DNA of 64,000 nt, from assembly GCA_036505195.1 (NCBI GenBank), contig DASXTX010000006.1, forward strand, positions 11,553 through 75,552, read 5' to 3'. Below the pieces are notes generated by a model, which had not been told where the DNA came from, made no database searches, and was given only the letters and a program-made list of their open reading frames with translations. Source of the stretch: Actinomycetota bacterium. Lineage in GTDB: Bacteria > Actinomycetota > UBA4738 > HRBIN12. Of the stretch, positions 23,050 to 64,000 are shown one piece after another. The position numbers and the translations under genes were made by a program. Every line of letters starts with the position of its first letter. Position 1 is the first letter of the stretch.

Positions 23050-26000
23050 CTAGGGACCGACGTGGATGGTCGAGCGTGCGGACGTGGTTCCGGACGTCAG
23101 GTTCGACGTCATCCTGGCCGTGAGTACGTAGTCGCCCGCCAACTTGCCCAGTGCATCGAAGGTGATCACGACCTTGCCACCGGGCGTCGGCCCCGAGATC
23201 GCGATCACGAACTCGTTCCCGTCGTCGGGCAGCGGGCTGATGTTGATGCCGCTGGATCCATCGCGGTTCTCGGCGCCGGCATTCAGACCGTCCGCCGCGC
23301 CGGTACCGACGACCCCGTAGCCCATCGAGACGTCCTCGTCCGGGTGAGCGTCCCCGTTCACCCCGATCCAGATCTGGAAGTCGTGGGCGTTGCCGGGGGC
23401 CTGTCCGAACGTCGGCACGTCCTCCCAGTCCACGACGATCCAGCAGTCGTTGACGACACAGCCCCCGGCTCCGCTCGCGAGGACGGTGATCCGGGCACCG
23501 CAGTTGGGCAGGCCCGGTGCCGCACATCCGCCCGCCGCGGCGAGGTTCAGATCCGTCCACCAGGGAGCGATGACGTTGTTCGGCCTTGCCGGGTTCGGCA
23601 GGGTCTGCGGAACGAACGAGTTGTCCCCGGCGGAGCCACCGCCGATGATCACGTACCCGTTCGAGTCCACGCCGATCCTCGTGTACGTCTCACGACCCCA
23701 CGGGAACGCCGGCACGTTGAAGTTCGTGATCGTCTCATCGCCCATCCCGGCGATCGGCGCGACCCCGAAGAGCCGGAGGGGGAGGTAGCCGCCGGCGGGC
23801 GTCCCACCCGGGGTGAGCGTGATCGCATCGATCGTCGGCGCGATCGACCCGTCCAGCGTCCCGCGCCAGGTGTAGCCGTTGACGCCGCTCACCTCGAGGC
23901 TCGTGGTCGACGCCCGGTCCAGCGTCACCTGCTCGTTGTTCAGCGGCAGGTTCGACGCGCTCGGGGTCATCTCCGTGATCGTGGTGTCGGCATCGGACGG
24001 CGAGAGGTTCTGCGCCGTCACGGTGCACGTGCTCGAGGCGTTCACGGCGATCGATGCAGGCGTGCAGCTCTGCGTCAGCGTCACGTCCCCCTGCCGGGCG
24101 AAGAACGCCACCGGAAGGTAGATGTCGTTGGCGCCGGCCGCCTTCGGATCGAGCTTGATCGACCCGAAGTACTGCGTGTTCGGGGCGAGGCCCTCGCCCG
24201 TGATCGTGAACACGAGCGTCTTGGTCTGACCCGGGTCCATCCCGAACTTCGATTGGTTCACGGAGATCGACGCCCCCGGCGGAGCGGACGTCGTGACCGT
24301 CAGCTGCTGCGAACTCCCGCTCACGTTCGTGAACGACCGCGTCGTCGAGACGCTCCCGCTGAACGTCGGCACGTTGATGCTCGGAAGGTTCGCGTCGATC
24401 CGGTGGATCGGATCCGAACCGAGCGACGCGTAGTCGGCCGCCGTCTCGTCGAACACGACGACCGGGGCGACCGCCCGGTCCGCTCGGATCGAGCCTGCCC
24501 CGGTGTTGAACGGATCGGCCGGCGTGACGCCGTCGGGCTGGAGCACGCTCTGCAGCGAGGACGTCATCATCGCCGACTTGATCTGCCCGGGGGTCCAGCT
24601 CGGGTGGGCGGCCTTGACGAGGGCCGCGACCCCCGTCGCGTGGGGCGCCGACATCGACGTGCCCGCGATCGCCATGAAGTCGTCGCCGGGTGGGCCGCTC
24701 GGGATCGCGACCGAGGTCGGATGCGGGCTCCTGCCGGCGAGGATCTCGATGCCCGGAGCCGTGATGTCCGGCTTGATCCAGTCGCCGAGCGGTCCGCGAG
24801 ACGAGAACGTCGTCATGATGTCCGGCGTCTGCGCGGTGCGCTCTCCGGTCGTGAACGTCGCCGTGACGTCCGGGTGAGCCGCCACGAAGCCCCGGACGTC
24901 GTCGCCCGGCTGGTCCTCTCCCTGCCACGTGCCGTCGTCGAGCATGATCGCCGGCAGCCAATGCAGGTCGGTGAACAGGTCCTGGTGGCCGACGTTGGCC
25001 AGGATCATGCCGGCGGCGTTGCCCTGGAGAGCCCGGAAGCCCGAGTCCGCTCGTCCCGCGGGGTTCCCCCGGTCGCACAGCACGATCTTCCCGAGGAGCG
25101 AACCTGCGGGGAAGTTGGCGCTGCAGGTGAGGCTGGTGTACCCGGGGACGCTGGTCGGAAGCACGACCGGCGTCGGCGTCTCGATGCCCGGCGTGATCGT
25201 CGTCCCGACGACGTCGAGCGAGACCGCGTCGGCGGCGGACTCGAGGTGGAGCGAGCCCTGATAGATCCGCGCGGGGTACGAGGCGCCCACGGTGTTCGTC
25301 CACGCGCCCGCGTGGTCGGCGGTCGCCGCTCCCGGACCGGAGTTGCCGGCCGAGGCGTTGACCAGGATCCCCGCGCCGTACGCGCTCAGGAAGGCCTGTT
25401 CGACGGCGTCCGAAAACGCGTTCGCGCCACCGCTGATCGAGAAGTTGAGGACGTCGACACCGTCCGCGATCGCCTGGTTGACGGCCGCGACGCTGTCGGA
25501 CTGGAAGCACCCACGGTTCAGGCACACCCGGTACGCGATCGCCCAGGCGCCCGGCGCCATGCCGCTCGTCGGGCCTCGATCGATGCCGAGCATCGGCGCG
25601 CTGTCGACGAAGTCGCCGGCGGATGTGGTGAGCGTGTGGGTCCCGTGCCCGTCGGCGTCGCGCGCCGAACACAGCCACGGACCCGAACCCGGCGTGTTGA
25701 GGCAGTACTCGTCGGGCTGGGGGACGAACACGGTCGTGTAGGTGTCCGTGAACGCGTAGGCGCCGACGAGCTTGTGGTTGCACGTGAACGGCGTGTCGTT
25801 CGCCTGGCCCGAGACGCCGAACTGACACCCGTACGACTGGGGCGGTGCCGGCAGTCCCTTGTCCTCGAGCATCGGGCTCTCGGGCCACACGCCCGTGTCG
25901 ATGTTCGCCACCAGGACGCCCTCACCCGCGTGATCCGTGCCCCCCAGGGAGGGCCACACGGCCGAGGCTCCGATGGACTCGAACGGCTCTTGCACCGCGA

Positions 26001-26949: not shown

Positions 26950-27590
26950 GGCTCCTCCACCCTATCGCCGTCGTAGTAACCGGTCCGCAGGCCCTTGAAC
27001 GAGTACCGGTGGATCGGAGAGGGTCCGTGCCGCCTGATCGCGTCCCGGTGCTCGTCCGTCCCGTACCCCCGGTTGTGGTCGAACCCGTAGGCGGGGAACC
27101 TGCGGTGGTAGCGGTCCATCATCCGGTCCCGGGTCACCTTGGCCACGATCGACGCGGCCGCGACCGACGCGGTCACCGCGTCCCCCTTCTTGATCGACAG
27201 GTTCGGGATCCCGAGCCGCTTCACCGGGAAGCCGTCGGTCAGGACGTAGTCGGGTGCGACGGGCAGGGTGGTGATGCACCGACGGAGCAGCCAGACGTTG
27301 GTCTTGTGCAGGCCCCGGCGATCGATCCGCGTCGGCGTGCACCGGCACACGGAACGAGCGACGGCGTGGCGCACGATACGCTCGAAGGCCGCGTCACGCT
27401 GGAGCGCGGTCAGCACCTTCGAGTCGTTGATCCCCTCCAGGTCGAAGTCCGCGGGCAGGATCACGGCCGCGGCCACGAGCGGCCCGGCGAGGGCCCCGCG
27501 CCCGGCCTCGTCGACGCCGGCGATCAGGCGGAAGCCCTGCGCCCGCAGACCGCGCTCGTAGCGCCCGAGGTCCAGGACTAGTGGATCCAC
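26946..27590 (-). CDS. rnhB: ribonuclease HII
   Basis: GVDEAGRGALAGPLVAAAV catalytic motif, DSK, and AASIVAKV. Start (GTG 27590) is uncertain and would overlap the lepB end by 13 nt. Confidence 0.85.
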   Translation of the reverse strand: MDPLVLDLGRYERGLRAQGFRLIAGVDEAGRGALAGPLVAAAVILPADFDLEGINDSKVLTALQRDAAFERIVRHAVARSVCRCTPTRIDRRGLHKTNVWLLRRCITTLPVAPDYVLTDGFPVKRLGIPNLSIKKGDAVTASVAAASIVAKVTRDRMMDRYHRRFPAYGFDHNRGYGTDEHRDAIRRHGPSPIHRYSFKGLRTGYYDGDRVEEP

Positions 27591-28237
27591 CCGACCCTCG
27601 ACGGTGGCCACACGATCGCGAACGCTCTCCCCACCACCTTGTCGACCGGGGCGAACCCAAGGCCGAACCGCGAATCGTTCGAGTTCAACCGGTTGTCGCC
27701 CAGGACGAAGAGCGCGCCTTCCGGAACCTTCACCGGGCCGTAGTCCCTCGTGTCGACCGCCCCCTTCAGGTAGGGCTCGCGGATCCGGACCCCGTCGACG
27801 AACAGTCTCCCGTCCCGCAGCTCGACCGTCTCGCCCGGGAGCCCAATCACCCGTTTGATGAAGTCCTCGTGCTCGGGCCGTTCGATGCCGAGCGTGCTCG
27901 ACAACCAGTGGACGAATCCGCCGACGATGCCGCGATCCGGGCCGGGGCGCCCCTGCGGGTCCGAGAACACGATGACGTCGCCGCGATCGGGACCGTACAC
28001 CACCTTCTGGACGAGCACGCGGTCCCCCGGCTCCAGGGTGGGCTCCATCGAGCTCGAGGGGATGAAGAAGGCCTGGACGACGAAGGTCTTGAGGACGATC
28101 GCGACCGCCAGCGCCACGATGAACAGGATCGGGAGCTCGCGCAGGAACGACCTGCGTTCCTCCTGGTCGGCGGGCCGAGGCTCCGAGAGCGTGAACCCGC
28201 CGGCCGGCTCCTCGGAGCCCGACAGGCGCTCGGTCAC
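27578..28237 (-). CDS. lepB: signal peptidase I
   Basis: SSSMEPTL catalytic Ser box, GDNRLNSNDSR box, and an N-terminal TM helix. Confidence 0.9.
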   Translation of the reverse strand: MTERLSGSEEPAGGFTLSEPRPADQEERRSFLRELPILFIVALAVAIVLKTFVVQAFFIPSSSMEPTLEPGDRVLVQKVVYGPDRGDVIVFSDPQGRPGPDRGIVGGFVHWLSSTLGIERPEHEDFIKRVIGLPGETVELRDGRLFVDGVRIREPYLKGAVDTRDYGPVKVPEGALFVLGDNRLNSNDSRFGLGFAPVDKVVGRAFAIVWPPSRVGWIH

Positions 28238-46299: not shown

Positions 46300-49200
46300 C
46301 TACGTCAGGTGAGCCGTCTCGAGTGGCCGGAGCAGCGACGCCCGGGCGACGGCGGGGGTGTTGAGGGCATCCAGCACCTCTTTGGCCTTGCTCATCAAGC
46401 GCGGCGCTCGCCGTCGGTTCCCCGCTTGGCGTTCTGCGTGCGCTTGCATCGCGAGCGCACGAGCGAGCCATGCGGTAACGCCGAGCTCCCGCCACCGTTC
46501 GACGGCCTCGTGGAACGCAACGGCGGCTGCGTCGGCTCGCCCGGATCGAAGTTCGAGCAGCCCGCGGTTCTCCGCGTCGATCGCGGCGGGTTCGCCGGTC
46601 GCGGCCACGGATCTCGATGCGGCTCGGGGCTCGCGGCCGGACATGATCATCCCCTGGTCGCGCGCCGCTCTGGCGAGCAGGAGCGTCCCGGTCGCGCCGG
46701 CAGAGCGCGCCGCCCCGACGGCGCTGTCCAGATCGGCGAGAGCTCGCGACGGCTCACCTGCTTCGAGACGGGCGCGACCTGTCAGGAGCGGGGCGAGGGG
46801 CTCCCAGAGTCGCCATCCATTGGCCACGACACCGGAACGGAGTTCGTCCGCCGCCCGTTCGACCTCCCTCAACGAACCGCGATCCAGATGGATCTGGGCC
46901 GTTACCAAGTGGGCATCGAGGATGTCGAGTCGTGTAGGCGGTTGTAGCAACTTCACCGCCGAGCGCAGCCTACGGGTGGCTACCGCCGGGCGGCCCGATC
47001 GCGCTGCCGAGCGTGCGCCGGCAAGCATCCCGAGCGCGACGACGCGGTCCGCCTCCATCTCGTGCCCCATCATGATCGCGGCCTCGGCGAGCTGTTGGGC
47101 TCGTTCTTGTGGTCCGATGTGCGCGGTTGCCATCGCTTCGATCACGAGCGTGTCGGCCTCCGCGTACCGGTCGCCCGCTTCGACGGCGATGGGGCGGGCC
47201 TGTTGCATCAAACGGATCGCCTCGACGTGACGCCCCCGATAGTGCTCGAAGTACCCGCTCGTTCGCAGGAGGCCGCTCCGCGAACGGAGGTCGCCCTCCT
47301 TGGTCGCGAGTCGACGGCTCTCCCCGAACCACCGCCGGTACTCCCGCCCACCGACGACCGTCAGGAGGAAGGCGAGGTCCTGAGCGACGAGCGATCGGCC
47401 AACGGTCTGTCCTGCTGTGGTCAGCAGTTCGTACGCGAGCCGCAACTCCTCGAGCTCCTGCCGGTAGTCCTCGTCCGCCCACGTGTCGGATATCCAGAGA
47501 TGGGCCCACCCTTGCCCCCCAACATCGCCGCATTCCTGGAAGAGTGCCAACGCGCGTTGCAGCAAGGGTCGCGACCGTTCGGAAAGTCCTTGTGCCATGA
47601 GTGCCCTCGCTTGAAGGGCCCGGTCACCCGATCTGCGAGCAAGCTCGTGGGCACTGATCGCATGTTCGATCGCCCCGCGGCGACGGCCCATCTCCTCGAG
47701 CGCCTCGGATCTTCCGACGAGGAGCCTGGCACGTTCCGCATCCTCGACGCCCGACCCGGCCGCGTCGGCCACGCGCAGGGCTCGCGCGTACAGGGCCTCG
47801 GTCGCGCGGGCCTGGTACGCGAACGACTCCTCCGCATGGCGTCGGAGGGCCCGCACCGTGAGCGACGAGACGTCGGCGGGCGGTGGAGGTCCCGTCCGCG
47901 TTCGCAACAACAACCAGGCCGATTCGTAGTGGTGAGCAACCATCGCCGGATCCTCGTGGGGCGCATCCTCGCTGAGCCAGCGCGCGATCTCCAGGTGCTT
48001 GCGAGCACGTTCTGCCTTCGGAAGGGATTCGTAGGCGACCTCACGGATCAGGACGTGTTTGAACCCGTACTCGGAGCTTCCAGGGAGCCCGCTGCGCCGG
48101 CGCCGCCGGAGCAGGTCGCGTGCTTCCAAGGAACGGAGCAAGGGTCTGGACTTGGCGCCCTCGAGGAGGTCGTCGAGGAGCACTTCCCAGACCGCGTCAC
48201 CCACGACGGCCGCATCCTGCACCAGCCGCTTCTCGGCCGTGGGCAGCCCGTCGAGGCGTGCCGCGATGAGCCGCCGGATCGTCGATGGCACACGTTCGAC
48301 CTCGTGCGGCCGCCTGACCGCCCATCGCCCCCCTTCGAGCGCGATCGCTCCCGACTCCACGAGCATGCCGACGCTCTCCTCGAGGAACAAGGGGTTCCCT
48401 CCCGACCGCACCACCAGGTTGCGAAGCAGGTCGGGGCGGAGATCCGATCCGAGGACCTCCCGCGCGAGCACGCTCGAATGTCCCTCGTCAAGAGCACTCA
48501 ACTCGATGGCGGGAAGCGTTCGGCCGAACCCCTCCGGACGTGAGAGTCCGAGGACGAGGATCGGCCCCCGCCACGGGGAGGAGTAGATATCCTCGATCGC
48601 GTCAAGCAGCTCCGGATCCGCCCAGTGAAGGTCGTCGATGATGAACACCACGGGTCGCTTCCGGGCGAGGTCCTCCACGACCGTGCGTACCGCTCGAAGA
48701 AGTGGTTCGATCGGGTCGGGTCGACGATTCCCCGGACGTTCGATCCCGAGGAGGATCCCGATGTTCCGAACAACTGCCGCCCTCTCTTGCGCATCGGCCA
48801 CGCGGACGGCAACCCGCTCGATCGCGGTCCTGACCTTGTCTTGATCCCTCGACCCGCTCGGAACGATGGCGCCCGACAGCGCCTCCGCGAGCGCGTCCAA
48901 CGGCCGCCTGCGCCCGAAGGGACGACACCTCCCCGACAGTACCGTGGCTATTTGGACCCGCCGCGCGAACTCCTCCGCGAGTCGGGACTTGCCAAGGCCC
49001 GGCTCGCCCGATACCACCTCGACCCGGGAGCGTCGGGTGCGGGTCGCGTTCCGAAGCTCGACCTCCAAGCGGGCGATCTCGGTGTGACGATCCACGAACG
49101 GCGCCGCCTCCTTCGGCCGACGAGCCCTGTGCACGAGCGTTTGGGCCGTGAGCGCTTCGTACGTCGGGAGGGATTGCTCCAGCCCCTTCACGCGTCTGCG

Positions 49201-57442: not shown

Positions 57443-58641
57443 ACCTTCTCCAGCGCGCGCTCGACGTCCTCGATCAGGTCCTCGACGTCCTCCAGACCCA
57501 CGCTCAGCCGGATCAGGCCGTCGGCGATGCCGGCAGCCCGGCGGGCGTCGGCGTCGAGCTGCCGATGGGTCGTCGAGGCGGCGTGGCACACGAGCGTATG
57601 GATCCCGCCGAGGCTCGCGGCCACCCAGATCAGCTCGAGCGCGTCGCAGAAGCGCTGCCCGGCCTCGACCCCGCCCACGACCTCGAATGCGGCCATCCCG
57701 CCGAACCCGCGAGGGAGCATCCGCCGCGCCACCTCGTGCTGCGGGTGGGACGGGAGCCCGGGGTAATGCACGGCCTGGATCTTCGGGTGGCGCTCGAGCC
57801 ACCCGGCGAGCCCGAGCGCCGTCCGGCCGTGGCGGTCCATCCGCACCTGCAGCGTCGACAGGCCCCGCATCGACAGCCACGCCTCGAGGGGTGCGAGCGT
57901 CCCACCGGTCTCGATCACCGTGGAGCGCAGCGCCGCCATCCGCTCCTCGGACGTGCAGACGATGCCGCCGATCAGATCGTTGTGGCCGCCGATGTACTTG
58001 GTCGCCGAATGCACGACGTAGGCGAACCCGAAGGACGCCGGGGTGCACAGGTACGGCGACGCGAACGTGTTGTCGACCACGCTCGGGACGCCGGCCGCCG
58101 ACGCGAGCGGCGCGAGCGCCTCGAGGTCGGACACCGTCACGTTCGGGTTCGCGATCGTCTCGACGTAGAGCATCGCCGCGCCGGGCAGCGCCGCCCGGAC
58201 CGCGTCCGGATCGTGCGGGTCCACGAAGCGCACGTCGATCCCGTAGCGCGGCAGCACGTGCGCGAACAGCGAGTAGGTGCCGCCGTACAGCTCGTTGCTC
58301 GCCACGATCGTGTCGCCGTTCGCGGCCAGAGTCGTGGCGACCGTGTGGATCGCCGCCATCCCCGACGCGAACGACAGCGCCGACTCGGTCCCCTCGAGCT
58401 CGGCCATCACGCGTTCGAACGCGAGGAGCGTGGGGTTCCCGTAGCCGCGCGTGTAGGTGAAGCCGGGCCGGCGGAAGTTGATCGTCTCGGCGAATCCGTC
58501 GGAGGTGTCGAACCGGAACGTGGAGGTCTGGAAGATCGGGACGCTGGGTGTGTCCTGCTCCACGGGCGGCAACGCCTGGCCGTGGATCGCACGGGTGGCG
58601 AACCCTCGATCGCGGTCCTCGGGATCGTGGTCGCGTGGCAC
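57439..58641 (-). CDS. PLP-dependent trans-sulfuration family enzyme (cystathionine gamma-synthase/lyase or O-acylhomoserine sulfhydrylase type)
   Basis: Cys/Met metabolism PLP family with NPT, SATKYIGGHNDLIGG (PLP lysine), and RLSVGLED. Exact specificity cannot be resolved by eye. Confidence 0.8.
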   Translation of the reverse strand: MPRDHDPEDRDRGFATRAIHGQALPPVEQDTPSVPIFQTSTFRFDTSDGFAETINFRRPGFTYTRGYGNPTLLAFERVMAELEGTESALSFASGMAAIHTVATTLAANGDTIVASNELYGGTYSLFAHVLPRYGIDVRFVDPHDPDAVRAALPGAAMLYVETIANPNVTVSDLEALAPLASAAGVPSVVDNTFASPYLCTPASFGFAYVVHSATKYIGGHNDLIGGIVCTSEERMAALRSTVIETGGTLAPLEAWLSMRGLSTLQVRMDRHGRTALGLAGWLERHPKIQAVHYPGLPSHPQHEVARRMLPRGFGGMAAFEVVGGVEAGQRFCDALELIWVAASLGGIHTLVCHAASTTHRQLDADARRAAGIADGLIRLSVGLEDVEDLIEDVERALEKV

Positions 58642-60320: not shown

Positions 60321-60626
60321 CTAGCGCCTGGCGGGGACGCGTCGCCGCTTGGACGCGACCATCTCGCGGAACTCCTTGCCGGCGGTGAACCACGGCAGGT
60401 CGCGCGCGGGCACCACGATGGGCGTCATCGGCTTGCGTGGGTTCCGCGCGATCCTCTTGTTCCGGCGCTTGCGTTCGAAGGTCCCGAACCCGACCAGGGA
60501 GACCCGCTCGCCGCGCGACACCGACTCCCGGATCACATCCATGGACGAATCGATCATGCGACCGACGTCCGCCTTGCTCGCGCCCGTGCGCTTGGCTACC
60601 TCGGCGATCAATCCGTTCTTGTTCAC
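60321..60626 (-). CDS. hup: HU/IHF-family nucleoid-associated protein
   Basis: NKNGLIAEVAKRTG...VSLVGFGTFERKRRNKRIARNPR. Start at GTG 60626. Basic C-terminal tail. Confidence 0.85.
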   Translation of the reverse strand: MNKNGLIAEVAKRTGASKADVGRMIDSSMDVIRESVSRGERVSLVGFGTFERKRRNKRIARNPRKPMTPIVVPARDLPWFTAGKEFREMVASKRRRVPARR

Positions 60627-60712: not shown

Positions 60713-61354
60713 ATGAGAAGGGTTCCGACGCTACTCGTTTCCCTGATCACCCTCCTTCCATGCGTGGCCTGTGCGCAAGACTCCGGACGGGAGTTCGCCC
60801 GCTACTACGACGAGCGGGGACTGTTTGCCCTGAACCTGCCCGCGGCCAACGACATCATCGTGACCCCGCCGCAGCCGGCTGAGAGCGGTCCGGGTTTCCT
60901 TTCCGGCGTGGTCTCGAGCCCGCCCGCGCCGAGCCCCTCCCCCGCCTCCGGAGCGCTCGGGGGCATCGACGTGGCCGCGCAGGGCGAACCGGACCAGACG
61001 GTCTACCAGGCCTTCGCCGTGACGGCCGACAGCTTCGACGACCTCGATCAGATGGCGCTCCACTTCCTGACCCGCAACCCGATCGTCGACGTCGTGATCG
61101 ACGATCCGACGCGGCTAGACGGCGACCCCGCGCGGCTGATCGTCGCGGACATCGATCAAGGCGGCGAGGTCACCTCCAGCGTCGCCGCGGCGATGACGCT
61201 CGGCGACGGGGCGACGGGATACCTGATCGTCGCGCTCTTCCCCCCCGGTGGCTGGGACGAGGAACGCGACGACTTCGAGCGGATCGTGCGATCGTTCCGA
61301 ACGGACGTGCCGCCCGGACTCGAGACGTTCCCCGTGGCCGGTCAGGCCTCCTGA
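60713..61354 (+). CDS. putative lipoprotein, unknown function
   Basis: MRRVPTLLVSLITLLPCVACAQD signal/lipobox-like N-terminus. No family recognised. Confidence 0.6.
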   Translation: MRRVPTLLVSLITLLPCVACAQDSGREFARYYDERGLFALNLPAANDIIVTPPQPAESGPGFLSGVVSSPPAPSPSPASGALGGIDVAAQGEPDQTVYQAFAVTADSFDDLDQMALHFLTRNPIVDVVIDDPTRLDGDPARLIVADIDQGGEVTSSVAAAMTLGDGATGYLIVALFPPGGWDEERDDFERIVRSFRTDVPPGLETFPVAGQAS

Positions 61355-61371
61355 TAGCATCCGAACCCCAC

Positions 61372-61408
61372 TGGCCCGTGGGGTATCGGTGGCCCGGCTG
61401 ACTCTGGA
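61372..61408 (+). pseudogene. orphan 5' half of tRNA-Gln (acceptor 5' arm to anticodon loop)
   Basis: 35 of 37 nt are identical to 63170-63206 of the intact tRNA-Gln. Downstream sequence cannot complete the anticodon stem or T arm. Confidence 0.8.
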
Positions 61409-61506
61409 GTATCTTCGGCCGAGCGGAGTGCATCCACGCCTTCCCTCTTCGCTGGACCGGAGCATGAGCGGGAAGTTGGTTGGGGGCCAGAAGAGAGGAA
61501 TCAATC

Positions 61507-61911
61507 ATGGACTGGGAGCCGATCAAGCGGACGGGGAAGCCGGATCCACGCAGCGTCGACGAACGAACGGGAACGACCCGGATCGTCCTTCACTTCCCGA
61601 TCTCGGCGTCGCCGCCGCGTGAGTGGAGGGAGTTCTTCGAGTCCAGGCATCGGGGACAGGAGTACCCGCCACTCACCATTCAAGAGGCGGAGGTCATCGT
61701 CCTTCCTCTCGAGAGCGAAGAAGAGTTCATCACCTGGACGGAGAACGTAGACAGGGATATCCAGCTGTCGAACGAGTTCTACGTACAGGTCCTCACCGAG
61801 GAGCAACAGCAGCGGAACGTGGCCCAAGGGGCGGAGGAGGAGCGGCTGCGGAAGCTCGAGCAGGCTCGCACCTGGACCGAGGGGCTCGATCCACCTGAGT
61901 CCTCTTCGTAG
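61507..61911 (+). CDS. hypothetical protein (islet-encoded)
   Basis: ATG 61507 is preceded by GAGAGGA SD. 134 aa with a charged, coiled C-terminus. No family recognised. Confidence 0.55.
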   Translation: MDWEPIKRTGKPDPRSVDERTGTTRIVLHFPISASPPREWREFFESRHRGQEYPPLTIQEAEVIVLPLESEEEFITWTENVDRDIQLSNEFYVQVLTEEQQQRNVAQGAEEERLRKLEQARTWTEGLDPPESSS

Positions 61912-62334
61912 AACCGGACCGCCTGCGGACCAGCTTCCTTCGCTCTGTCGGGGCCATGATCGACGCCATCGCCAGGTCGATCTCGGCGCCGCGACGAACT
62001 CGAGCGCGCGGCGAAGCCTCACCCCGGAAGTCCCGCCAATCAGCCCTTTGGCTGACTGTCAGGAGGCCAGGGCGAGCACATAATCCGCCTGCGGGGAGTC
62101 CTGAACCCCCCTTCGGGTTCGGGAGGGCGCTTCCCTGGCGGCGCTTGCCCCGAGGACAGGTGCCGCCGTGGCCCACGGCGTCCTAGGCGTCGAGAGGGGC
62201 TTCCCGCCCTACCTCACCGGGAGCCACCGACCATCGAGGACCTGCGGATGGTCAAGTGCCGAAGTTTTGAAATGTCTGCCCGTGGGTAGTCGCGCAATCC
62301 GGATACGGGCGAGGCCCGAAAGGAGGCCGTCGGG

Positions 62335-63111
62335 ATGAGGCGATTGCTTGTGATCGTTGTAGGACTGCTCCTGTTCGCTCTCGTGCCAGGATCGGCTGGC
62401 GCCATTACGAACGGTCAGAAGGACACCGAGAACAAGTACCCGTTCGTGGGCCTGCTGGCCTTCTATGATGCGGACGGCGAGTACATGCACCGATGCACTG
62501 GCACGCTCATCTCGCCCACGGTGGTTCTCTCCGCGGCACATTGCACGATCGGCACCGCGACGGCGTACGCGTATTTCTCAGTCGAAGTGCCCGATGACTT
62601 CAGGGAGAACCCCACAGGCGTCCTCGGAACCACATACACCCACCCGGATTACAACCCCAACACCGGCTACAACGACGTGGGCGTTGTGGTTCTCGATGAG
62701 GCGGTGAGTCTCAGCCAGTACCCCGTGCTGGCTCCCGAGGGGTTCCTCACTGACCTGAAAGCCGCGGGCGAAATCCGGGACGACACGTTTGTGGCTGTCG
62801 GCTACGGCCTCTTGGACGGGTGGCCGCCTCCGAACCTCGTGACCAACGAGGACCGCTGGTACGTCTCCTCCCCCTATGGGGGACTGAGGAAGAACAACTT
62901 GCTCCTGTTGCAGAACCCAGTCCCAACCGGCCTGGGCGGGACCTGTTTCGGTGACTCCGGTGGTCCGCACTTTTGGCAGGACACGCTCATCATCGTCTCC
63001 GTCACGAGCTGGGGTGATGCGATCTGCCGGGCCTCCGACATGACCCAGCGGACCGACATCGCGTCGGTGTTGGACTGGTTGGAAGAGGAGTTCAGCGTCA
63101 CACCGGCATAG
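62335..63111 (+). CDS. secreted trypsin-like (S1 family) serine protease
   Basis: Signal peptide and catalytic triad contexts LSAAHC, YNDVGVVVL, and CFGDSGGPH. AAAGGAGG SD precedes the ATG. Confidence 0.85.
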   Translation: MRRLLVIVVGLLLFALVPGSAGAITNGQKDTENKYPFVGLLAFYDADGEYMHRCTGTLISPTVVLSAAHCTIGTATAYAYFSVEVPDDFRENPTGVLGTTYTHPDYNPNTGYNDVGVVVLDEAVSLSQYPVLAPEGFLTDLKAAGEIRDDTFVAVGYGLLDGWPPPNLVTNEDRWYVSSPYGGLRKNNLLLLQNPVPTGLGGTCFGDSGGPHFWQDTLIIVSVTSWGDAICRASDMTQRTDIASVLDWLEEEFSVTPA

Positions 63112-63141
63112 GTCGAGACGCGTGCTACCGCTCCCCACGAG

Positions 63142-63172
63142 CCAGAGGGCGCTGTTAGCATGGCGCCTCTGG
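63142..63172 (+). terminator. imperfect hairpin after the protease gene, touching the tRNA 5' end
   Basis: CCAGAGGGCGC-(10 nt)-GCGCCTCTGG, about 10 bp with one bulge. Confidence 0.35.
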
Positions 63173-63240
63173 CCCGTGGGGTAACGGTAGCCCGGCTGAC
63201 TCTGGATCAGTTAGTCCTGGTTCGAATCCAGGCGGGCCAG
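63170..63240 (+). tRNA. tRNA-Gln (anticodon CUG)
   Basis: Hand-folded cloverleaf. Acceptor is TGGCCCG/CGGGCCA with U1-A72 (typical of bacterial tRNA-Gln). D stem is GGGT/GCCC. Anticodon stem is GCTGA/TCAGT with loop CT-CTG-GA. T arm is CCTGG-TTCGAAT-CCAGG. No encoded CCA. Confidence 0.85.
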
Positions 63241-63323
63241 CTACCGCGGATCGCTACCGGCGCCCAGTCGAGACCGCCGGCGTTCCATCGCGTCCAACGA
63301 GTGGGTGAGCGCGTCGCGCGTCG

Positions 63324-64000
63324 CTAGGGTCTCGGATCCAGGATCAGGGGCGGGATCGGATCCTGGGTGAAGTCGAACTCCTTGAGCAGGTTCCCCAGGA
63401 TCGAGGCATTCTCGCGGACCGTGGGTCGCGAGTCCGGACGGCTGAGGGTGGCCGGGTTGAGCCGCTGCTTGTCCAGGAACAGGTCCTCGATGAGCTTGAG
63501 GTAGGCGTCGAAGGACAGCGTCTGTGAGTCGATCAGCCCCGCCCGGGCCCACGGGCTGATCAGCAGGCCCGGAACGCGGATCCCGTAACCGTTGAGATCG
63601 ACCCGCGGGGGTTCGACGTGGTCGTAGAAGCCGCCCCAGTCGTCCCACGTGAGGAAGATCGCGGTCTCGTTCCAATCCGGGCCCCGCATCAGTGCGTTCA
63701 CGACGTTCGTGACGTGCCGCTGGCCCTTCCAGATCGGTGCGCCCGAGGCCGGGTGCTCGCCGACCCCGTTGTACGGCATGACCCACGAGACGGACGGCAG
63801 CGTGCCGTTCGCGGCCTGCCGGTAGAACTGGGTGTGCGTCTGGATGCGATCCATCTGACCCGTCTCGCGGATCGTGGTGAACCACGGGAGCGGGTTCTGC
63901 TGCGCGACCGTGTTCTTCGGGGGGTGACCGGGGCATGGGTCGAAGAAGCACGTGTCGTCGCCGACGTAGTACCCCCACGAGACCCCTTGCTCGTGCAGGA
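63324..64000 (-). CDS. phosphoesterase-family protein (phospholipase C/acid phosphatase type), 5' end outside window
   Basis: The frame stays open to the window edge ([15 protein letters not shown]...). It contains [13 protein letters not shown] and [14 protein letters not shown], typical of the PF04185-type phosphoesterases. Confidence 0.75.

Follow-up and report, generated by a model that had tools for sequence, protein, structure and literature searches.

Organization of the locus

A 1.8-kb islet of reduced GC content lies near the end of a 64-kb window (the whole stretch of DNA analyzed here, C6:11553-75552) in a metagenome-assembled genome (MAG) of an Actinomycetota bacterium. The islet is bracketed by two copies of the 5′ half of a tRNA-Gln(CUG) gene and is most probably what is left of an integrative element. 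The MAG was assembled from short reads and comprises 272 contigs (3.2 Mb, 95% complete, 6% contamination). At the left end of the islet lies an orphan 5′ fragment of the tRNA gene (61372..61408, + strand), which covers nucleotides (nt) 1-37 of the tRNA, carries two substitutions in the D-loop, and would represent the core of the left attachment site (attL). At the right end lies the intact tRNA-Gln(CUG) gene (63170..63241, + strand), in which the core of the right attachment site (attR) would be joined to the host's own 3′ half. Between the two are found the presumed element arm of attL (the P′ arm, 61409..61490, + strand), a hypothetical gene (61507..61911, + strand), a non-coding spacer (61912..62334), a gene for a secreted serine protease (62335..63111, + strand), and a palindrome that extends over the start of the tRNA gene (63124..63191).

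The two copies can be aligned over 38 nt (61371-61408 and 63169-63206) with two mismatches, or over 41 nt with three. The initial annotation had described this repeat and had placed both mismatches in the D arm; more precisely, both are in the D-loop (TAtCGGTgG in the orphan versus TAACGGTAG in the tRNA). The identity of the orphan with the tRNA comprises three of the four preceding bases and runs from nt 1 to nt 37, ending where the 7-nt anticodon loop (CTCTGGA, tRNA nt 31-37) ends, as had also been noticed at the outset. When the 37-nt half was searched for with up to three mismatches, only these two sites were found in the 64 kb, compared with 0.00 expected (100 shuffles). Its reading as one intact gene and one orphan half agrees with the RNA predictions, in which only the right copy was scored (by ARAGORN, and with 62 bits by the Rfam model RF00005); the orphan was called neither by ARAGORN nor, even at E<=10, by Infernal/Rfam as a tRNA or other RNA. 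The assembly has one tRNA-Gln gene with the anticodon CTG and one with TTG, and 63170-63241 is thus its only gene for the CUG isoacceptor. As the orphan lies upstream of the intact gene and in direct orientation (both on the + strand), the arrangement is that of a 5′-fragment tRNA island.

The islet is flanked by host genes on both sides. The left flank consists of the gene for a lipoprotein-like secreted protein of no known family (60713..61354, + strand), an open reading frame (ORF) with a GC content at third codon positions (GC3) of 0.86, whose stop codon lies 17 nt 5′ of the orphan and whose product had no match in Pfam and NCBIfam searches. The gene is kept in 22 of 41 relatives, and in all of these its neighbor is the HU gene (PF00216), which the window carries at 60324-60626 on the - strand. 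The short stretch between the lipoprotein-like gene and the orphan (61355..61371, + strand) is the native host flank of tRNA-Gln, includes a -10-like hexamer TAGCAT (61355-61360), and would form the B arm of attL. To the right, a gene of the phosphoesterase (phospholipase C/acid phosphatase) family (63324..64000, - strand; GC3 0.92) with partial matches to TIGR03397 and TIGR03396 runs off the window, and the contig itself ends 1.3 kb past tRNA-Gln.

Empty and occupied sites in related genomes

Up to 20 kb around the lipoprotein-like gene was compared in 20 genomes of the same genus, in which flanking genes, tRNAs, and tRNA halves were mapped. The empty site that the initial annotation had anticipated is present in seven of them (G020, G012, G023, G004, G014, G016, and G001), where the lipoprotein-like gene is followed by tRNA-Gln about 20 nt further on, with a phosphoesterase gene just past the tRNA in six of the seven. 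The bases 5′ of the empty-site tRNAs (cctgaTAGCATcggaaccccac) are those found 5′ of the window's orphan; the window flank 61355..61371 matches what precedes the tRNA in G020, one of the empty-site genomes, and also what precedes every orphan. A matching phosphoesterase gene lies 3′ of tRNA-Gln, at empty and occupied sites alike, wherever the downstream side was recovered, except in G012 and G017.

In at least seven further genomes (G022, G003, G008, G007, G018, G010, and G013), an orphan is located at the same base and behind the same host flank. Its end point is identical in six of them, the orphan of G013 being truncated earlier. Wherever the arm can be read, the orphan is followed by a conserved element arm of about 23 nt (GTATCTCCCGAYGAACGGTGTGC) and, roughly 75-85 nt in, by a second conserved block (GAGTTAGTTGG), with diverged versions in G010 and G007. 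Both blocks are also present in the window, where the arm reads GTATCTTCGGCCGAGCGGAGTGC, the second block (gaagttggttggg) is situated about 65-80 nt in, and the arm as a whole aligns with the post-orphan sequence of G022, G018, G003, and G008. The distance from the orphan to the intact tRNA amounts to about 3 kb in G007, 5.8 kb in G003, 6.7 kb in G008, 8.8 kb in G022, and 22.75 kb in G018. In the last three genomes the island at this identical position, with its shared attL arm, contains an intact integrase gene, whereas in G007 and G003 only remnants of that gene are left (amino acids ~6-82 and the first 21 codons, amino acids 1-21, respectively); the contigs of G010 and G013 end before the tRNA, and no integrase was seen in them. 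A blastn comparison detected no DNA common to the islands, or to the islands and the window, beyond the attL arm.

All intact tRNAs are identical and the orphans differ by 0-5 substitutions, which is the pattern expected for a gene under selection and a dead fragment. In two other genomes (G019 and G005) the orphan has been lost and an element-type arm 5′ of the tRNA has been kept: in G019, which lacks the protease, the lipoprotein-like gene is accompanied by the hypothetical gene, an element-type P arm, and tRNA-Gln sequence truncated by the end of the contig; G005 is organized similarly, but its tRNA is intact. In a tree of the 1-kb flank, empty and occupied genomes are interspersed, as the empty G012 is sister to the occupied G008 and the empty G020 groups with G003 and G018; the site must therefore have been filled or emptied several times. 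Both substitutions of the window's orphan recur in the truncated orphan of G013 (TATCGGGGG versus TATCGGTGG; tRNA TAACGGTAG), so the event is older than the split between these two genomes. This, and the fact that G019 and G005 have the hypothetical gene here too, makes the event an old one that is shared with relatives.

The more distant members of the genus show another kind of change. In G002, G015, G009, and G017, the lipoprotein-like gene and a tRNA-Gln(CTG) gene are found on opposite strands (tRNA gene at L050 14711-14782, L051 15765-15836, L047 13979-14050, and L052 14811-14882, respectively), and in G002 and G015 the sequence of the tRNA gene is also quite different. Here the locus has been inverted or the tRNA gene replaced, and thus rearrangements do occur at this site.

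Integrases and cargo of the sister islands

A scan of ten genomes placed a PF00589 integrase inside the islands of G022, G008, and G018, directly upstream of the intact tRNA-Gln and divergent from it. The start of the integrase gene and the tRNA are separated by about 70-130 nt in these intact relatives. The three proteins share 54-90% identity over about 300 aligned amino acids, and the catalytic residues of their alignment are invariant: R161 (TGCRL), K185 (GKG), H252-x-x-R255 (HQLRH), W278, and Y287. Scores of 88-98 bits against PF00589, along with SAM_4 and SAM_1 N-terminal domains, identify them as tyrosine recombinases; an arm-binding domain was not detected in the sister-island integrase. 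The scores against the XerC/XerD equivalog models lie far below the cut-offs (TIGR02225, 136 versus 330 bits; TIGR02224, 134 versus 335 bits). The enzyme is thus Xer-like in architecture only, and its gene sits in variable islands next to tRNAs. The integrase stumps of G003 and G007 likewise adjoin the tRNA (also at locus L101). A single site in the genus thereby presents a series of states: empty, occupied by intact elements of ~7-23 kb, occupied by islands with integrase stumps (G007 and G003), and occupied by the integrase-less 1.8-kb remnant of the window.

The cargo differs from island to island. In G018 (G018:C7:57778-80531; L055 and L042), the integrase is accompanied by an 83-amino acid ORF, a 157-amino acid ORF, and a DUF3631 protein, after which come a small protein with a match to phrog_226 and a weak one to Terminase_7, and then an 84-amino acid ORF without a family match, a layout that resembles a small phage-related or satellite-like element. 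An IS481-type transposase is found in the island of G022, an S8 subtilase with a fervidolysin-like prodomain in that of G003 (L041), and a protein with a weak PPC-domain match, below the Pfam cut-off, in that of G007 (L044). Cargo in the form of secreted proteins recurs at this hot spot, namely the subtilase of G003, the PPC-like protein of G007, and the S1 protease of the window.

Gene content and composition of the islet

The islet (61409-63168) has a GC content of 63.6%, compared with a genome mean of 69.4% (standard deviation 2.6 in windows of 1,760 nt), and belongs to the lowest 2.5% of these windows. The initial annotation had reported a lower GC content of 57-60% from sampled stretches; the direction of that deviation holds, but its size does not, since the overall value is milder, the spacer has a host-like 68%, and the GC3 of the two islet genes (0.80) falls only at about the 25th percentile of a crude ORF set. 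The compositional signal is real but modest. The statement that the islet contains only a hypothetical gene and a secreted S1 protease, without an integrase, was in turn borne out: neither a Pfam profile search (PF00589) nor tblastn with the cognate integrases at E<=10 revealed an integrase in the islet, and the only PF00589 match of the contig is a Xer gene ~44 kb away.

The hypothetical gene encodes a protein of 134 amino acids that belongs to no known family (Pfam, NCBIfam, and PHROGs all without a match). It is found at the same locus in G019 (~90% nucleotide identity) and G005 (82%). A frameshifted copy with 91% nucleotide identity exists in G023 (L112 12083-12445; G023:C6:124082-124444), directly 3′ of a gene whose product has a C-terminus resembling DNA-3-methyladenine glycosylase I (Tag) as judged by eye, with neither a tRNA nor an integrase close by. 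The gene thus occurs at more than one kind of locus. The spacer that follows it (423 nt) had no match in Rfam and, in 40 relatives, no DNA match beyond a 28-nt repeat word; it contains one sigma-70-like site (62056-62084) and may serve the protease gene as a leader or promoter region, or else may be a decayed gene. A scan for consensus terminators called none.

The second gene encodes an apparently intact, trypsin-like (S1) serine protease of 258 amino acids (PF00089, 69.5 bits) with a signal-peptide-like N-terminus, whose nearest solved structures are trypsins (5dk1 and 4m7g). It ends 58 nt before tRNA-Gln. Homologues with 60-85% amino acid identity are located at unrelated loci of G003, G018, G023, G014, G001, and G009. 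The two closest ones (G003 and G018) are homologous over the ORF itself, to within a few bases of its ends, and were set aside as candidate sources of the window's gene since they thus offer no informative flanks.

The palindrome and the upstream region of the tRNA

The near-perfect palindrome at 63124..63191 is 68 nt long. Its left arm is an inverted copy of nt -3 to +22 of the tRNA, and a TAGCAT hexamer (63156-63161) is located at its center. The region 63105-63245 has a predicted folding energy of -73.5 kcal/mol (z -4.07). The palindrome is absent from all eight aligned relatives and may be the scar of the event by which the integrase was removed.

The TAGCAT hexamer is found 5′ of the tRNA in the host flank, in the window, in the element arm of G022, G003, G019, and G005, and in the inverted copies of G002 and G015; in the element arm of G018, G008, and G007, a hexamer differing by one base takes its place. 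It may represent a -10 element, and the host flank 61355..61371 would then have a promoter role. A scan for sigma-70 consensus sequences called one promoter-like site, which lies in the spacer, and none of the TAGCAT hexamers, whose promoter role is thus putative.

The wider integrase family and other tRNA islands

An alignment-based scan for the integrase family, using one genome per species, delivered 48 loci in Actinomycetota, Chloroflexota, and Dormibacterota, 44 of which were scanned for tRNAs. A tRNA lies about 70-250 nt before the integrase start in 36 of the 44 (~780 nt in one of them), in divergent orientation in 24 cases and co-oriented in 12. Orientation is clustered on the integrase tree, where it requires three changes, a value that none of 500 shuffles matched; the reversed type may even have a single origin on that tree. 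Whole-genome searches found displaced 5′ fragments ending at nt 38-42 for tRNA-Pro (islands of 35 kb and 21 kb) and tRNA-Arg(ACG) (11 kb), and additional fragments are present on other contigs. The same reversed polarity is thus observed in the wider clade. A co-oriented member in Actinomadura, on the other hand, is associated with a tRNA-Val that has a classical 3′ fragment 19 kb downstream.

Other tRNA genes in the genome under study are also accompanied by fragments. On contig C52, a perfect 5′ fragment of 48 nt (24667-24714) precedes tRNA-Leu(TAG) (47798-47882) by 23 kb, with a different tyrosine integrase (46970-47764) divergent from the tRNA, and a perfect 3′ fragment of 57 nt (57651-57707) is found 9.8 kb downstream, with no integrase match between tRNA and 3′ fragment, which suggests two islands of opposite polarity on a single tRNA gene. 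On contig C149 (2525-3436, 4322-4391, 4504-4668, and 6903-6975), tRNA-Gly(TCC) has a classical 3′ fragment at a distance of 2.5 kb on its downstream side, with an integrase fragment in the interval, and a paralogue of the S1 protease is located directly past the 3′ fragment, a second case of a protease beside a decayed tRNA island. Finally, on contig C268 a tRNA (27590-27662) is followed by the co-oriented N-terminal part of an integrase of the Xer-like family (27748-28029), which is cut by the contig end. The genome may therefore hold a further element of this family with the usual polarity.

Proposed origin of the islet and alternative explanations

The islet is best explained as the decayed remnant of an element that was integrated by a tyrosine recombinase into tRNA-Gln(CUG) with an uncommon, reversed polarity, and we assign this explanation a probability of roughly 0.87. 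In such a scenario the attP of the element would have carried a copy of the tRNA 5′ half (nt 1-37, in some cases with a few upstream bases). Strand exchange is most likely to have taken place in the 7-nt anticodon loop, between the two arms of the anticodon stem, as is presumed from other integration sites of the anticodon-loop class. At the left end (attL), the 5′ half of the host gene would have stayed behind its native upstream flank and become a dead orphan, while a working tRNA would have been rebuilt at the right end (attR) from the 5′ half of the element and the 3′ half of the host. As the 5′ half of the rebuilt tRNA and its upstream region would then be derived from the element, its transcription would have to start from element DNA, and the element would presumably supply the promoter. 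From left to right, the order is host flank, first 5′ half, and one element arm, then the other element arm, the second 5′ half, and the host's 3′ half, so that an ordinary tRNA island appears here in mirror image. In the lineage of the window, the integrase and most of the element would later have been lost, leaving attL with its arm, the hypothetical gene, the spacer, and the S1 protease, and the tRNA-proximal region would have been remodeled into the palindrome; the islet is probably immobile at present. Site-specific integration into the 5′ half followed by loss of the integrase had already been proposed in the initial annotation, and the empty sites, the integrases of the sister islands (G022, G008, and G018), and the integrase remnants (G003 and G007) all argue for it, as do the RNA predictions for the two copies and, more modestly, the GC content.

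Several observations weigh against this explanation. The window is linked to the integrase-bearing islands by position, orphan, and an arm of ~80 nt, with no genes in common, and the codon signal of the two islet genes is weak. The islet has no recombinase, and a cognate integrase was not found elsewhere in the 95%-complete assembly, in which the best matches are Xer genes with 29-36% identity and the family fragment at the end of contig C268; the attP junction of an excised form was not found in genome or metagenome contigs. At the right end, the tRNA-proximal arm of the window gives no convincing alignment with the sequence that separates integrase and tRNA in the relatives, and a search of public contigs found the right junction in no second assembly.

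Four other explanations were considered. One of them is a mis-join of the assembly at the 37-nt repeat or at the palindrome, which would fit a fragmented MAG with 6% contamination, a contig that ends 1.3 kb past the tRNA, and a right junction found in this genome only. The left junction (orphan, arm, and hypothetical gene) is corroborated by the independent assemblies of G013, G019, and G005, the same architecture is present in assemblies of only 10-20 contigs (G003, G022, and G018), and a repeat of 37 nt is shorter than the final k-mers commonly used in assembly, so that an artefact appears very improbable. A composite history, in which the orphan, the P′ arm, and the hypothetical gene would stem from the element and the protease and the palindrome would have come later through an unrelated event that removed the integrase, is considered here as a tentative possibility, somewhat short of even odds. 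It would account for G019 and G005, which have the hypothetical gene and an element-type P arm next to tRNA-Gln (with no protease in G019), for the closest protease homologues (G003 and G018) at unrelated loci with homology ending near the ORF ends, and for a palindrome that looks like a repair scar. Neither a transposase nor a target duplication or second att site surrounds the protease, though, and since a sister island also carries a secreted protease (the S8 subtilase of G003), the S1 protease may be plain cargo. Such a history refines the explanation by integration and decay rather than conflicting with it; the protease may have belonged to the element from the start or may have arrived later. 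A further idea is that the islet is a non-autonomous, cis-mobilizable element whose attL and attR could be used by an integrase acting in trans; against it, the palindrome replaces the tRNA-proximal P arm with a sequence unlike that of the active relatives. In favor of continued mobility, the orphan has no changes in its anticodon stem-loop part (both substitutions being in the D-loop), the conserved blocks of the P′ arm have been kept, and the empty sites nested among occupied relatives reveal excision or re-integration within the genus. As no cognate integrase or helper is encoded in the assembly and the substitutions shared with the orphan of G013 indicate that the insert has stayed in place since the split, we regard mobilization in trans as unlikely.

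The least credible alternative dispenses with an integrase altogether and assumes a tandem duplication of tRNA-Gln, after which the first copy lost its 3′ half through an insertion or deletion. Bacteria often have tRNA genes in tandem, and the window alone could not exclude this course of events. The relatives leave it hardly any room, since the orphan has the same end base and the same non-tRNA arm in six genomes (the orphan of G013 being cut earlier), the contents of the islands vary by genome and integrases are found at the predicted place, no relative has two full copies of tRNA-Gln, and the same kind of 5′ fragment accompanies other tRNAs in the wider integrase clade. Ideas involving group I introns or split tRNAs are ruled out by the comparative data as well. 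Integration by a tyrosine recombinase and subsequent decay is therefore retained as the favored explanation.

Significance and comparison with known systems

Integration and decay would explain the compositional islet and imply that the only tRNA-Gln(CUG) gene of the genome is a chimera, for which a mobile element has provided the 5′ half and the upstream region. Possibly, the orphan still keeps the host's tRNA promoter, which would now drive the co-directional cargo genes of the window. Within the genus, one site displays a natural series of decay stages, and in the integrase family whole clades with the uncommon 5′ polarity stand beside relatives with the usual one, which is useful for understanding what fixes the orientation when the anticodon stem-loop is almost symmetrical and how a tRNA gene comes to have its promoter replaced by an element. 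Island finders that drop Xer-like recombinases or islands smaller than 2 kb may miss such elements.

Integrase-less remnants of integrative elements that are flanked by att sites are known as cis-mobilizable elements (CIMEs) and have been described for the integrative and conjugative elements of streptococci. The islet shares with them the flanking attL and attR, the lack of its own integrase, and the derivation from a larger element by deletion. It differs in its remodeled attR arm and in the fact that the assembly contains no helper element; its mobilization in trans is hypothetical.

Compared with the classical 3′-fragment islands and prophages (the "A" sublocation of Williams 2002), the chemistry is the same, the anticodon-loop sublocation is the same, and the site is likewise a hot spot with variable cargo. 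The polarity is mirrored: here it is the 5′ half that occurs twice, and the promoter side of the host has remained with the orphan. The classical polarity is that of the co-oriented members of the sister-island integrase family, such as the one at tRNA-Val in Actinomadura. The initial annotation had called integration on the 5′ side much less common than 3′ targeting, and the Islander database agrees, with a 5′ tDNA fragment in 159 of 3,919 islands and a 3′ fragment in 3,760 (PMC4383910). Recombination at the 5′-distal part of tRNA genes has also been called "considerably less frequent" in a paper citing Zhao & Williams 2002 and several archaeal cases (PMC6563490). As these archaeal elements are cited there (Krupovic & Bamford 2008; Gaudin 2014; Cossu 2017; CalSub-E1), they have the same reversed polarity and are rarer than their 3′ counterparts, and they differ in belonging to another domain of life and in relying on other integrase types.

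A close match is provided by the 5′-fragment tRNA islands collected in Islander and reportedly described by Zhao & Williams 2002 (J Bacteriol 184:859). The common features are the intact tDNA with a direct-repeat 5′ fragment upstream, the presumed crossover in the anticodon loop, a tyrosine integrase that adjoins the rebuilt tDNA where the element is intact, and an element that supplies the 5′ half and the upstream region. The window copy differs from them in having no integrase, in its size of 1.8 kb, which is under the 2-kb filter of Islander, and in a cognate integrase that is Xer-like, with a SAM-like N-domain and a catalytic domain; Islander leaves out both the Xer subclass of recombinases and islands below 2 kb (PMC4383910). 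The window thus holds a new, decayed member of a kind of island that has already been catalogued, and for this reason current concepts are unchanged. A bolder proposal, about which we are hesitant and which we would put a little below an even chance, is that the islet represents, in worn form, a large lineage of Xer-like integrases from uncultured soil Actinomycetota and Chloroflexota that has so far gone undescribed and in which the reversed polarity is inherited as a rule. Its elements would carry a tRNA 5′ half with a replacement upstream region, possibly including a promoter, and would target the tRNAs for Gln, Arg, Lys, Pro, Met, Val, and Ala, while sister integrases use the classical 3′ mode. 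If this is true, the contrast in polarity between such sister enzymes would be a natural system for finding out what sets the polarity of integration into tRNA genes.

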